Part shown: piece by piece, positions 1 through 4,049 of the stretch | Layout of the letters: every line of letters begins with the position of its first letter | Position numbering within the stretch: the stretch's first letter is position 1 | Source: a plasmid | Assembly (NCBI RefSeq): GCF_054482525.1 | Contig: NZ_JBTHVG010000005.1 | DNA length: 4,049 nt | Strand: one strand, 5' to 3' | The notes under the pieces: model-generated | What the model saw: only the letters and a program-made list of their open reading frames with translations | What the model was told of the DNA's origin: nothing | Database searches by the model: none | Program-made: the position numbers and the translations under genes

Positions 1-126
1 AACAGGAAGGATGCGTCAGGATCGTTTTCAGCTCGCTGCATAGCTATGCATGAAAGCGAATGGTGATCACTTTGGGAGCTTACGGTGTTCATACCGTCTG
101 TTTTCGACAGTTTTCTCTCCGGGAAG

Positions 127-474
127 CTAATCTGCCATAAGCCTGGATAACAGGGCACGGTGATACTCCGTAATAGCGATCAGCACCTCCGCATACTCCC
201 TGTCCCCGACACGCTTGCCGTCGATAAAGAGTTTTTTCTGTAACGCCCCCAGTCTCATAACTTCTTTCAGTACCCGATCATCAGTCAGTGAGTTAACTTT
301 CTTACCGAGAGCTGCCGCCCGTAAAAAACCGGAAACGGTCTTGCCGCATTCAGCAGCCCTTTTTCTGATTTCCTGGTCTTCTTCTGCCGTCAGACGAACA
401 GGGCGACTGATAGCCCGCCTGCGCGTATTACTTCCACTTCGTTTTGTCATAAAACATGGCTCCGTATCTGACAT
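127..474 (-). CDS. mobC: MobC-family plasmid mobilisation (relaxosome accessory) protein
   Basis: 115-aa ORF whose core (RLTAEEDQEIRKRAAECGKTVSGFLRAAALGKK...) resembles the MobC/MbeC family of small relaxosome proteins. It reads away from the adjacent bom/oriT-like sequence. An alternative start at M9 (ATG at 450) is preceded by GGAG at about 9 nt spacing and may be the true start. Confidence 0.8.
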   Translation of the reverse strand: MSDTEPCFMTKRSGSNTRRRAISRPVRLTAEEDQEIRKRAAECGKTVSGFLRAAALGKKVNSLTDDRVLKEVMRLGALQKKLFIDGKRVGDREYAEVLIAITEYHRALLSRLMAD

Positions 475-733: not shown

Positions 734-928
734 ATGAACAAGCAGCAGCAAGCCGTACTCAACATGGCGGGATTCATAAAAAGTCAGAGCCTGACGCTGC
801 TCGAAAAACTGGACGCACTCAATGCCGACGAACAGGCCGCCATGTGTGAGAAACTGCACGAACTCGCAGAAGAACTCCAGAACAGCATACAGACACGCTT
901 TGAAGCGGAAAATCTTACCGGGATATAA
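734..928 (+). CDS. rop: Rop/Rom (RNA one modulator) protein, copy-number control
   Basis: 64-aa ORF MNKQQQAVLNMAGFIKSQSLTLLEKLDALNADEQAAMCEKLHELAEELQ... closely parallels ColE1/pMB1 Rop (recalled as MTKQEKTALNMARFIRSQTLTLLEKLNELDADEQADICESLH...). A GGAG Shine-Dalgarno lies about 8-13 nt upstream of the ATG (acggagaaaacgaaaagATG). Confidence 0.9.
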   Translation: MNKQQQAVLNMAGFIKSQSLTLLEKLDALNADEQAAMCEKLHELAEELQNSIQTRFEAENLTGI

Positions 929-1544
929 CGCATCCGGACAGGATGCAGAACGGCATAGAGGAGCGTAAGGAGAAAATGTCACATAAGGCGCTCTTCCGCT
1001 TCCTCGCTCACTGACTCGCTACGCTCGGTCGTTCGACTGCGGCGAGCGGTGTCAGCTCACTCAAAGGCGGTAATACGGTTATCCACAGAATCGGGGGATA
1101 AAACCGGAAAGAACATGTGAGCAAAAGACAAAGACCCAGAAGAAGGGCGCGCGGGAGGCGTTTTTCCATAGGCTCCGCCCCCCTGACGAGCATCACAAAA
1201 ATCGACGCTCAAGTCAGAGGTGGCGAAACCCGACAGGACTTAAAGATACCAGGCGTTTCCCCCTGGAAGCTCCCTCGTGCGCTCTCCTGTTCCGACCCTG
1301 CCGCTTACCGGATACCTGTCCGCCTTTCTCCCTTCGGGAAGCGTGGCGCTTTCTCATAGCTCACGCTGTTGGTATCTCGGCCCGGTGTAGGTCGTTCGCT
1401 CCAAGCTGGACTGTATGCACGAACCCCCCGTTCAGTCCGACCGCTGCGCCTTATCCGGTAACTATCGACTTGAATCCAAACCGAGAAGACACGACTTATC
1501 GCCACTGGCAGCAGCCACTGGTAACCGAATTAGAGGAGTTAGCC

Positions 1545-1574
1545 TTGAAGTCATGCGCCTGTTAAGGCTAAACT
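1545..1574 (+). promoter_or_regulatory. RNA I promoter (-35 TTGAAG, -10-like TAAACT)
   Basis: TTGAAG at 1545-1550 and TAAACT at 1569-1574, placed as in the pMB1 RNA I promoter relative to the RNA I 5' end. Confidence 0.6.
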
Positions 1575-1580
1575 GAAAGA

Positions 1581-1685
1581 ACAAGTTTTGGTGACTGCGC
1601 TCCTCCAAGCCAGTTACCTCGGCTCAAAGAGTTGGTAGCTCTGAGAACCTTCGAAAAACCGCCCTGCAAGGCGGTTTTTTCGTTT
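1581..1685 (+). ncRNA. RNAI: RNA I antisense copy-number control RNA
   Basis: ACAAGTTTTGGTGACTGCGCTCCTCCAAGCCAGTTACCTCGGCTCAAAGAGTTGGTAGCTCTGAGAACC...GCGGTTTTTTCGTTT parallels ColE1-family RNA I (pMB1: ACAGTATTTGGTATCTGCGCTCTGCTGAAGCCAGTTACCTTCGG...). It ends in a GC hairpin plus T-run. Confidence 0.85.
1656..1685 (+). terminator. RNA I intrinsic terminator (hairpin plus T-run)
   Basis: aaaaaCCGCCctgcaaGGCGGttttttcgttt: GC-rich stem CCGCC/GGCGG followed by six T. Confidence 0.7.
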
Positions 1686-1695
1686 ACACAGCAAG

Positions 1696-1724
1696 AGATT
1701 ACGACGAGATAGAAAGGATCTCAA
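1696..1724 (-). promoter_or_regulatory. RNA II promoter (-35 TTGAGA, -10 TAATCT)
   Basis: Minus strand reads cTTGAGAtcctttctatctcgtcgTAATCTc with a 17-nt spacer, closely matching the pMB1 RNA II promoter. Confidence 0.7.
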
Positions 1725-1763
1725 GTTCTCATATCATAAAAACAAGCTGACACATCCACGATG

Positions 1764-1967
1764 TTATACCTTTTGAATCGCTACAGCTTTAAACCCTTTA
1801 TCTGTTTTTTCTAATTTAAACCTAACTAAAATACCTTTACATATATCGACATCATGCCCTAAAAACAAAAAATCATCATACCGAAAGAAAACATCACGTC
1901 CACGCTCACGCCTTATAAAGCCATACCCTTTAACATGGTCATAAAAATTAACAAATCCATTTTCCAT
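1764..1967 (-). CDS. Cold-shock-domain (CspA-like) small nucleic-acid-binding protein; candidate retron effector/accessory protein
   Basis: Core GFVNFYDHVKGYGFIRRERGRDVFFRYDDF aligns to the CspA fold (GxVKWFNxxKGFGFI...DVFVHF) with RNP1-like KGYGFI and RNP2-like VFFRY. The ATG at 1967 lies 4 nt after the RT stop (TGA 1972-1974) and is preceded by AGGTGA, indicating translational coupling. The longest ORF extends to an upstream ATG at 2021 (85 aa) overlapping the RT 3' end; the true start is uncertain. Confidence 0.8.
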   Translation of the reverse strand: MENGFVNFYDHVKGYGFIRRERGRDVFFRYDDFLFLGHDVDICKGILVRFKLEKTDKGFKAVAIQKV

Positions 1968-1971
1968 ATAA

Positions 1972-3111
1972 TCACCTATCTGGAAGTAATGCCACGAGCT
2001 TACGTCTATATAGTTTTGCAAGATTCTTATTAGTCCGCCCTACTATATCAAAATCATAGAGCATCCTATCTATTTTCCTAATCTGATCATCAGTTAAAGG
2101 CGGCGTAAACTTATTTAGATAGTGCTTAGCCATCAACTTTAATTTAGATATCTTGTAATCATCATAAACTGGCATTATCTCAGAAAGAATCGCCCTCAAT
2201 TCAACCGCCTGGACATGCCCAAGCCTCGACATTTGAGCAACCTTGCCAGAGCATCTATTCCATAAATCATGGTACTCTTTCGTATGACGTTCATAAGCAC
2301 CTTGTTTTTTACATATATAAACTAAGTACCTGATATAACGTCTATTTTCTTTTGTTAACTTAGGAACACCATGCTTTACCCACAACCCAGTGACACTAAG
2401 TTTAGAAGACGAATCTTTTGAGTGCTCTATCGTTGTCTTACTTTCATTTATTGAAAGTCTGTACTGATTCACCATTCCGTGAACGAGTTTTATTACTTTT
2501 GTTTTTTCCTCTGATGAAAGATCCTTATCAGAGGATATAGTAATATCATCTAAAAGCCTTGAATATGAAAGCCCCATAGACTTCAATCTATTATAGAGAT
2601 TATACTCACTATTAAAAAATAAAAGATTTGCAATATAACTAGAACAGCACCCACCCTGAGGGACCTTATTATTCAACGTCACAAGTTCCGTTAAGCATAA
2701 AGAAACATCAGGAGAAAAACGCATTAAATTTTTAAAAATAGAACAAACATCTTTTTTACTAATGCTGGGATAAAAATTGGTGATATCAAGACATATAACT
2801 GTTCTTTTCCTAGTATGAACAGCGGCATTAGATATATAATCGCGACCACTTAACGCCCCATGCAAATAATGAGGGTAATCAATTTTCTCAAAAATCTCTT
2901 TATTTATTTTTTTTTGAATTCCTTTCAAAGATCTCTTGGGTTCAAAAATTTGCCTTTCTTTTTTATTCTTCCCTGTTTCAACCTTAAACTGCTTGTACGA
3001 CATCGATACAGACTTGACTATCCAGTCCAATCTTTTTCTTTCTATGCCTAACATCGCAGATAAAGAATCCAAAGATGCAACAGGAGTTCCATTAAACCTG
3101 GGTTTATTCAT
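1972..3111 (-). CDS. Retron-type reverse transcriptase
   Basis: 379-aa ORF with RT motifs in order: NAxxH-like SNAAVH (res 95-99), motif A CLDITNFYPSI (catalytic D109), motif B VPQGGCCSSYIANLLF, motif C YSRLLDDITIS (D188, D189) and VTG (res 240-242). It aligns motif by motif with retron Ec86 RT as I recall it (IDLEDFFPSL / LPQGAPSSPKLANL / YTRYADDLTLS / RKVTGLVI). The ATG lies 7 nt after the a2 repeat. Confidence 0.9.
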   Translation of the reverse strand: MNKPRFNGTPVASLDSLSAMLGIERKRLDWIVKSVSMSYKQFKVETGKNKKERQIFEPKRSLKGIQKKINKEIFEKIDYPHYLHGALSGRDYISNAAVHTRKRTVICLDITNFYPSISKKDVCSIFKNLMRFSPDVSLCLTELVTLNNKVPQGGCCSSYIANLLFFNSEYNLYNRLKSMGLSYSRLLDDITISSDKDLSSEEKTKVIKLVHGMVNQYRLSINESKTTIEHSKDSSSKLSVTGLWVKHGVPKLTKENRRYIRYLVYICKKQGAYERHTKEYHDLWNRCSGKVAQMSRLGHVQAVELRAILSEIMPVYDDYKISKLKLMAKHYLNKFTPPLTDDQIRKIDRMLYDFDIVGRTNKNLAKLYRRKLVALLPDR

Positions 3112-3118
3112 GATGTTT

Positions 3119-3401
3119 GAGTTAAAAGTCGATTAGTTAAAAAGTTTCGATACGTAATCTATTACTTTAAACATAATCAAGCACATAGAAAACAAAAACT
3201 GTGTTTTTTTCAGTGCCTCCAGAGAGCCAACCTCTCTTTTTTTCTTCATCTGACCGTCTCCAGAACAAGATGAAGAGCTCTTGGTTACGTTAATGTTGAT
3301 GTTGATAATAAACATGATGCAACTCCTATTGGTTATGAAATTTTGCCAGACCAGTAGGAAAGCAAGGAAAAACTCTATTGGCTCTTTGGGACTTTTAACT
3401 C
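3119..3401 (-). ncRNA. Candidate retron msr/msd non-coding RNA bounded by a1/a2 inverted repeats
   Basis: Perfect 12-bp inverted repeat: plus-strand gagttaaaagtc at 3119-3130 and gacttttaactc at 3390-3401. On the minus strand this gives 5'-GAGTTAAAAGTC (a1) ... about 260 nt ... GACTTTTAACTC (a2), then 7 nt, then the RT ATG. Internal hairpins include CTTCATCT-n16-AGATGAAG, AGAGAG-gttgg-CTCTCT and AAAAAC-aca-GTTTTT. Exact msr/msd boundaries and the priming G are not determined. Confidence 0.6.
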
Positions 3402-3684
3402 ACATTGCCAGACAATCGTCGCTATTCTTTTAGTGCTGATACACGCTCAGGGGCGTTCTCACCATTAATTAGCGGCCAGGCCGGTCATGATCTCATGCGA
3501 GATCGCCTTAAAAACAAGGCATCGGTTTCCTTGCGCAACATACACGTAACCATTTGTTAAAGAGCGAGAGCCAGGCGTGGTTCGCCCGCTTCGCTGATTA
3601 TTATAAAGTTTTTTATCTTTCTGTCACCAACAAGAAAGCGCCTTATCCTGCCAGCGATAGGCTAAAAGGTATGCAGCATGAGAT

Positions 3685-3921
3685 TCAAATCAACTCAGCT
3701 ACAAAGGCCATAACAACAATCCCAACCTCAGCATCGGCACTCAGGATAATTTTTGAACTAGCATCTCTTAAATTCTGACCGTCAAAGGTTGCTACTTTTT
3801 TTAAAGAGGCATCCCTTAAAACCTTGCCATCAAAAGTCGCTATTTTTCTCGAAAAGGCATCTCTTAAGGTTTTACCGTCAAACCGAGCAACGGTTTTTAA
3901 GTCATTGTTTTTATTGAAATA
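3685..3921 (-). pseudogene. Open frame encoding 16-aa tandem protein repeats with a hydrophobic C-terminus; no canonical start codon, so a possible decayed gene or non-canonical initiation
   Basis: Minus-strand frame from the TAA at 3922-3924 to the TGA at 3685-3687 translates to YFNKNNDLKTVARFDGKTLRDAFSRKIATFDGKVLRDASLKKVATFDGQNLRDASSKIILSADAEVGIVVMAFVAELI*. Differences between repeat copies are largely synonymous third-position changes (GCT/GCG/GCA, GAC/GAT, GGT/GGC, AGA/AGG, AAA/AAG). No ATG, GTG or TTG precedes the repeats; the nearest ATG (3903-3905) is offset by 1 nt and gives M-T-stop. Confidence 0.3.
3761..3904. repeat. Three tandem, diverged 48-bp direct repeats
   Basis: Units at 3761-3808, 3809-3856 and 3857-3904 each begin GCATC(T/C)CTTAA and share an (A/G)CC(G/A)TCAAA block and a T-run; identity is roughly 65-75%. 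Confidence 0.85.
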
Positions 3922-3955
3922 TTAATTTCTCACCAATAGTAATTTAACCAATTGT

Positions 3956-3985
3956 ATTTACCATAATCCCTTAATTGTACGCACC
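3956..3985 (-). other. cer: cer-type XerC/XerD site-specific recombination core (plasmid multimer resolution site; accessory arm extends toward and past the window end)
   Basis: Minus strand reads GGTGCGTACAA-TTAAGGGA-TTATGGTAAAT, matching the ColE1 cer core (XerC arm, 8-bp central region, XerD arm) as I recall it. Accessory sequences would lie on the XerC side at 3986-4049 and beyond. Confidence 0.8.
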
Positions 3986-4049
3986 GCTGAAACGCGCTGA
4001 ACGCGATTCTGACGCAGACACCGCAAAAAGAGATGTTTTACCCCGGGAA

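Follow-up and report, generated by a model that had tools for sequence, protein, structure and literature searches.

Does the XerC/XerD crossover core lying near one end of the analysed DNA, a 4,049-nucleotide stretch hereafter called the window, belong to a complete multimer resolution site (mrs), and what adjoins it on either side? In the preliminary description of this DNA, a cer-type core was recognised on the minus strand “at the window edge”, its ArgR/PepA accessory sequences were expected to extend beyond the window, and the lack of any such accessory region was to be taken as a sign of a minimal or non-functional site. Our analysis indicates that the locus is very probably the complete cer-type mrs of a ~4.05-kb circular ColE1-type plasmid. 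It is an ordinary resolution site of a known kind, in a known plasmid group.

Plasmid circle, gene content and group

When compared with circular plasmids of 4050–4054 bp from E. coli, Salmonella and Shigella, the window was ~98.5% identical over 100% of its length. Moreover, window positions 3701–4049 joined to 1–400 aligned without a gap over 749 bp with the circular relative L003 (NZ_CP103484). Since the junction from 4049 to 1 is gap-free in a circular relative, the window is a complete circle, and the location of the core at an edge is merely an artefact of linearisation. The circle was opened 64 bp from the core, and on the XerC side the next base after 4049 is window position 1. The window represents a complete ~4.05-kb circular ColE1-type plasmid with retron Se72, nikA and an R64-like oriT, and the following features were located on it:

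1972–3111, minus strand: retron Se72 reverse transcriptase (RT)
1764–2021, minus strand: cold-shock-like retron effector
734–928, plus strand: rop
1583–1683, plus strand: RNAI of a ColE1-type origin (94.6 bits)
127–450, minus strand: nikA-type relaxase-accessory gene (from the ORF list; Pfam NikA-like, 66.3 bits against a cut-off of 27)
502–543: inverted repeat of 20 bp with a 2-nt gap, 85% complementary, adjoining nikA

The gene at 127–450 is annotated as mobA or nikA in relatives, and the inverted repeat next to it fits an R64-like oriT with 20-bp repeats, as described for small plasmids that bear nikA and are devoid of a relaxase (PMC9282650). The plasmid belongs to those ColE1-like plasmids that bear nikA and lack a relaxase, among them pCERC7, NTP16 and pU302S; the nikA/oriT small-plasmid group was described by Moran & Hall 2017, as cited in PMC9282650 and PMC6807383. 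Both this group and the presence of variable segments adjoining its resolution site have thus already been described.

A relative, L001 (CP148311.1, 8002 bp, deposited as a “complete” record), consists of a 4001-bp unit, with two repeat copies, that is present twice head to tail. It could be a genuine unresolved dimer or, more likely, a long-read assembly artefact.

The crossover core

The 30-mer GGTGCGTACAATTAAGGGATTATGGTAAAT occurs once in the window, without mismatches, at 3956–3985 on the minus strand. It is identical to positions 3909–3938 of ColE1 (NC_001371), and hence the core had been correctly recognised as an exact copy of the ColE1 cer crossover core. In 200 dinucleotide-preserving shuffles the 30-mer was never matched, even with 3 mismatches allowed. 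The core is divided as follows:

3985–3975, minus strand: XerC arm GGTGCGTACAA, 11 bp
3974–3967, minus strand: central region TTAAGGGA, 8 bp
3966–3956, minus strand: XerD arm TTATGGTAAAT, 11 bp

This agrees with the published layout of Xer cores, at which an 11-bp XerC arm and an 11-bp XerD arm enclose a centre of 6–8 bp (PMC5357621), and with the core expected of a cer-type site (PMC5357621, PMC2699498). The exact 30-mer is present in 646 plasmid records, while the arm and core together were found at >=80% coverage, that is at least 80%, in 739 plasmid records, 17 of which reach at least 99% identity. Distant plasmids among the 739 records have kept exactly the part between the ARG box and the core, in line with selection on the site.

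A weak two-copy tandem repeat of 15 bp at 3932–3960 (score 42) takes in the final 5 bases of the XerD arm. Its copies read TAAATACAATTGGT and TAAATTACTATTGGT on the minus strand, and it may be due to chance.

Accessory arm, ARG box and orientation

As the window is the whole circle, the accessory arm is not missing; it continues across the linearisation point and comprises these parts:

3986–4049, minus strand: core-proximal accessory arm; the blocks CTTTTTGCGG and CGTTTCAGC adjoin the core, with A/T tracts at −44, −54 and −66
1–126, minus strand: distal accessory arm, ending at the nikA stop codon (127–129)
35–52, minus strand: ARG box 18-mer CATGCATAGCTATGCAGC, a candidate ArgR site

On the XerC side, the minus strand thus reads from 3986–4049 into 1–126, giving 64 + 126 = 190 bp of accessory arm, bounded by the nikA stop codon. 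Cer-type sites have ~180 bp of ArgR/PepA-binding accessory sequence adjoining the XerC arm (PMC2699498), and the 190 bp found here correspond to that length. The accessory sequences that had been expected beyond the window therefore lie inside it, and with a 190-bp arm carrying an ARG box the site is complete rather than minimal.

Within the ARG box lies a perfect palindrome, TGCATAGCTATGCA, at 37–50. The pattern TGMATNNNNATKCA matches the window once, against 0.03 matches expected by chance, and the palindrome aligns opposite the ARG box of ColE1, TGCATAGGTATTCA. We have aligned 11 sites, namely those of the window, ColE1, the NTP16-like pOSAK1, ColE7-K317, Klebsiella plasmids and others. Measured from the centre of the palindrome to the base at which the core begins, the spacing is 107 bp for the window and 106 bp for ColE1, and it stays within 106–108 bp across all 11. 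The search for an ArgR box about 100 bp on the XerC side, proposed in the preliminary description, is thereby answered with a single predicted ARG box at that distance. Compared with the ARG-box consensus, this box deviates at positions 5 and 14 and in the central WWWW (its centre is AGCT). Its right half reads ATGCA versus ATTCA in ColE1, and ATGCA is also found in the aligned Klebsiella sites. Judging by these letters, the box seems a little further from consensus than that of ColE1. The most conserved positions of ARG boxes, G4, A6, T7, A12 and T13 (PMC6640053), are all satisfied in the 18-mer.

Four A/T tracts lie equally far from the core in the window and in ColE1 (−168, −92, −66 and −44), although the stretch is only 53.5% identical between the two. 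Phased A/T tracts that are conserved have been described at cer-type sites (PMC2831885). A Fourier analysis of AA/TT periodicity showed no clear ~10.5-bp peak in the accessory arm, and for this reason the tract positions were used instead. PepA lacks a well-defined recognition sequence (PMC2831885); a role for PepA is suggested here by the homology of the arm to nmr and cer, together with the conserved A/T tracts.

In ColE1-like plasmids, the mrs and RNAII follow the same direction (PMC2831885). In our plasmid RNAI is on the plus strand, so that RNAII is on the minus strand, and the core reads from XerC to XerD on the minus strand, parallel to RNAII. The same holds for ColE1, NTP16 and plasmid p3 (NZ_CP023374, 3173 bp).

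Proposed mode of action

Beyond this observed anatomy, spacing, conservation and orientation, and the homology breakpoints described below, we infer protein binding, recombination activity and plasmid stabilisation by analogy with known sites. By homology to cer and nmr, ArgR would bind the ARG box at 35–52, and PepA would bind the flanking accessory DNA (3986–4049 and 1–126). ArgR and PepA together would wrap the two sites, directly repeated in a plasmid dimer, around each other, pairing both cores (3956–3985), which would be bound by XerC and XerD of the host. XerC would then exchange the first pair of strands, leaving a Holliday junction to be resolved by the cell. Dimers would in this way be converted into monomers, which may protect the stable inheritance of a multicopy plasmid that is partitioned randomly. 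The outer edge of the XerD arm is at the same time the boundary between the conserved backbone and a variable cargo, here the retron module. The nearest experimental support for dimer resolution comes from ColE1 cer, with an identical core, and from NTP16 nmr, with an arm that is ~91% identical (cited in PMC7315355).

Pcer and the Rcd RNA

According to the preliminary description, cer sites on ColE1 plasmids encode the checkpoint RNA Rcd as well; an expectation of Rcd did not hold for this plasmid. The XerD-side flank is 25% identical to the rcd region of ColE1, as for random sequence, and a BLAST search of ColE1 3939–4060 against the whole window gave no match; the body of a ~70-nt Rcd RNA, running from the core into the XerD-side flank, was accordingly not found in that flank. 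On this sequence comparison a ColE1-type Rcd RNA gene is absent from the plasmid, which is the reason why Pcer and Rcd could not be placed before.

The alignment to ColE1 still defines a position equivalent to that of the promoter:

3974–4001, minus strand: Pcer-equivalent position

TACAAT at 3979–3974, inside the XerC arm, is presumably the −10 hexamer. The −35 equivalent is presumably TTCAGC (4001–3996), at which ColE1 has CTGAAC. TACAAT is retained because it is part of the XerC arm and is thus kept by necessity. Pcer is known to lie within cer, with a 15-bp spacer (PMC4393325, PMC5935869).

A promoter and terminator scan of 3650–4049 found nothing, and it also misses the known Pcer in ColE1. 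Likewise, the Rfam search of the window gave no Rcd-like match, and neither did ColE1's own rcd region; Rfam is evidently without an Rcd family. Folding z-scores of the presumed Pcer transcript, for which the coordinates were guessed, were +0.52 for the window, +0.31 for ColE1, +0.89 for p3 and −1.99 for NTP16. As the promoter scan, Rfam and folding are equally negative on the authentic Pcer and rcd of ColE1, they carry no weight.

The cargo side of the core

On the other side of the core, the site ends and the cargo begins:

3685–3955, minus strand: start of the variable cargo, outside the site, directly abutting the XerD arm and holding an ORF with three 48-bp repeats

The repeats at 3761–3921, left unexplained in the preliminary description, do lie on the XerD side of the core as stated there. 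Tandem repeat finder and the translations show that they are built from a 48-bp (16-aa) unit, (V/I)A(T/R)FDGKxLRDAxxxK. They belong to a small ORF at 3685–3951 on the minus strand, which is annotated in relatives. Among the retron plasmids the repeat is found in 2, 3 or 5 copies, and a poly-A run just upstream varies from A5 to A7. In the window, codon 10 of the ORF is TAA, position 3924 being A where a relative has C. Homologues of the ORF were found in close relatives of this plasmid only, and its sole Pfam match is below threshold (Bflower_2, 21.5 bits against a cut-off of 38). It may be a real gene, or else a contingency-like locus or non-coding DNA.

For all of the compared plasmids without the retron (p3, NTP16, ColE1 and others), homology goes no further than 3955, where the XerD arm has its outer edge. 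Plasmid p3 is 99.6% identical to the window over 3955–4049 plus 1–450, a segment comprising the core, the accessory arm and nikA, and is unrelated to it immediately beyond. The closest retron relative differs from the window at 57 positions within the backbone segments 1–121, 503–1341 and 3988–4046, versus only 3 positions within 1342–3987, giving a divergence of ~4% in the backbone and ~0.1% in the retron cargo. The ori/rop segment at 503–1341 is close to neither p3 nor this relative. From the p3-like part and the part shared with the retron relative, the junction is therefore placed at 3955–3987, in 33 bp that contain the core. Furthermore, the mean divergence among five retron plasmids is 9.8% in the 130 bp on the accessory side, compared with 2.3% in the 130 bp on the cargo side, figures that are descriptive only because the pairs are not independent.

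On sequence grounds, the mosaic junction and the contrast in divergence are in keeping with a site at which exchange actually takes place. For ColE1-like plasmids, Tran et al. 2012 and Zakharova et al. 2002 (cited in PMC6764390 and PMC8683028) have put forward such exchange at the Xer site. The mosaic pattern is also compatible with homologous recombination inside the conserved arm.

Plasmids of 4261 bp from Klebsiella and Serratia share the origin and the retron region (window 1159–3640) at ~81.5%, and they carry neither the repeat ORF nor this mrs. From the limits of this match, the conserved retron unit ends near 3640, and 3641–3955 is therefore a separate piece of cargo.

A more far-reaching proposal combines these elements. 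The cer core would be a working cargo-swap junction for the Se72 retron module between nikA/oriT ColE1 backbones, the module would include the repeat ORF of variable copy number that abuts the XerD arm, and the −10 of Pcer would give a dimer-dependent transcription into the cargo instead of Rcd. Taken as a whole, we consider this scenario unlikely.

Alternative explanations

What might be questioned in the first place is whether the site works well, for some cer-like sites resolve dimers poorly, namely mwr (PMC2699498) and, according to a title cited in PMC6764390, fpr. A weak or defective site of this kind would be a conserved backbone segment and a recombination hotspot that contributes little to stability. 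The ARG box of our plasmid, less consensus-like than that of ColE1 in its right half (ATGCA) and centre (AGCT), would be in line with such a deficiency, since relatives of cer can be deficient via the ARG box or the central region (PMC2699498; for fpr, the title cited in PMC6764390), and the dimer-length record of 8002 bp points the same way. Yet the core does not differ, in the central region or elsewhere, from that of the fully active ColE1 cer, the same ARG box is found in NTP16 nmr, which according to a citation in PMC7315355 recombines with cer in vivo, and hundreds of plasmids keep strictly to the spacing and the A/T tracts, all of which makes a weak site improbable. Even less can be said for a chance resemblance of the 30-mer, or for an isolated minimal Xer site devoid of an accessory arm. 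The apparent truncation at the window end is the only point in favour of this explanation, and it is refuted by the absence of matches in the shuffled sequences and by the 190-bp arm with its ARG box across the circular junction; we regard its probability as negligible.

Another explanation would add to the function of the site rather than diminish it. The complete cer-type site might also retain a Pcer-like promoter that is activated in dimers, with a transcript running into the repeat ORF and retron cargo or acting as a non-homologous checkpoint RNA. The −10 TACAAT is indeed retained, with a −35 equivalent at the same place as in ColE1, and in relatives the annotated ORF begins at 3951, only ~16 nt downstream of where transcription would be expected to start. 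However, a retained −10 proves nothing in this respect because the XerC arm sequence forces it, and TTCAGC matches TTGACA at only 3 of 6 positions. On the favourable side, there is also a precedent for a cargo promoter inside such a site, at which PR of the EcoRI restriction-modification operon of pMB1 is built into cer and the central-region TTAAGG serves as −35 (PMC7315355). By inspection, TTAAGG at 3969–3974 on the minus strand of our plasmid has no acceptable −10 at a spacing of 16–18 bp downstream, and a pMB1-like PR was rejected. Downstream of the core, neither a terminator-like element nor an unusually stable structure was detected, by two tests that fail on ColE1 too. Moreover, the right flank differs in every plasmid lineage, and hence it holds no conserved RNA, and the repeat ORF in the cargo is broken in the window. 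A promoter function of this kind is thus unlikely, and we retain the complete cer-type resolution site as the explanation of the locus.

Significance

For the plasmid itself the result matters little beyond its correct annotation, as it carries a full stability site rather than a truncated one. It corrects the expectation that every cer-type site encodes Rcd, and it adds one more case at which the XerD-arm edge of an mrs is the boundary between backbone and cargo, here for an anti-phage retron. This is relevant to the way in which small multicopy plasmids gain or exchange defence or resistance cargo. The idea of cargo exchange has been published before (Tran et al. 2012 and Moran & Hall 2017, as cited in PMC6764390, PMC8683028, PMC6807383 and PMC9282650).

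Comparison with known systems

The alignment with ColE1 cer that had been suggested at the outset gave a divided result. The 30-bp core is identical in the XerC arm, the 8-bp centre TTAAGGGA and the XerD arm, and the ARG box is found at the same distance (106 versus 107 bp) with the same orientation relative to RNAII. In contrast, the accessory arm is not of the cer type but of the NTP16 nmr type. It is 53.5% identical to ColE1 from the ARG box to the core; distal to the box, identity drops to ~25%, about as for random sequence. Pcer also differs in its −35 region. ColE1-type plasmids match the site of the window only over the core plus ~22 bp.

NTP16 nmr shows the reverse pattern. Its accessory arm is ~91% identical to that of the window, with an identical ARG box, and both nmr and the site of pOSAK1 have the same neighbours (nikA immediately distal and oriT beyond) and the same XerD arm. 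On the other hand, nmr differs in its XerC arm, GGTGCGCGTAA, and in a centre of 7 bp, TGAGACG; for both of these the window agrees with ColE1. The XerD-side cargo of NTP16 and pOSAK1 is lsoAB, unrelated to the retron of the window. From these alignments, the site is best read as a natural composite of an nmr-type accessory arm and a ColE1 cer-type XerC arm and central region. Zakova & Szatmari 1995, as cited in PMC7315355, reported that cer and nmr recombine in vivo. We rejected a simple Xer crossover between nmr and cer as the source of this composite, given a XerC arm of the cer type with DNA of the nmr type immediately outside it; a crossover in the central region would not produce a cer XerC arm beside an nmr-type flank.

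The mwr site of the Klebsiella plasmid pJHCMW1 belongs to the same class, being dependent on ArgR and PepA with ~180 bp of accessory sequence (PMC2699498). It differs in its reportedly poor ARG box and its reported dependence on osmolarity and supercoiling (PMC2699498). The Klebsiella sites that we have aligned, which we suspect to be mwr-like, carry the same exact cer core as the window and, like it, have ATGCA as the right half of their ARG box; in the left half they have CGCAT where the window has TGCAT.

Finally, psi of pSC101 and the chromosomal dif share the same XerC/XerD core design, with 11-bp arms and a centre of 6–8 bp (PMC5357621). In psi, however, ArcA acts with PepA and both recombinases exchange strands, while dif needs FtsK and is devoid of an accessory arm (PMC5357621). 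With its ARG box and its cer core, the site of the window belongs with cer rather than with psi or dif.
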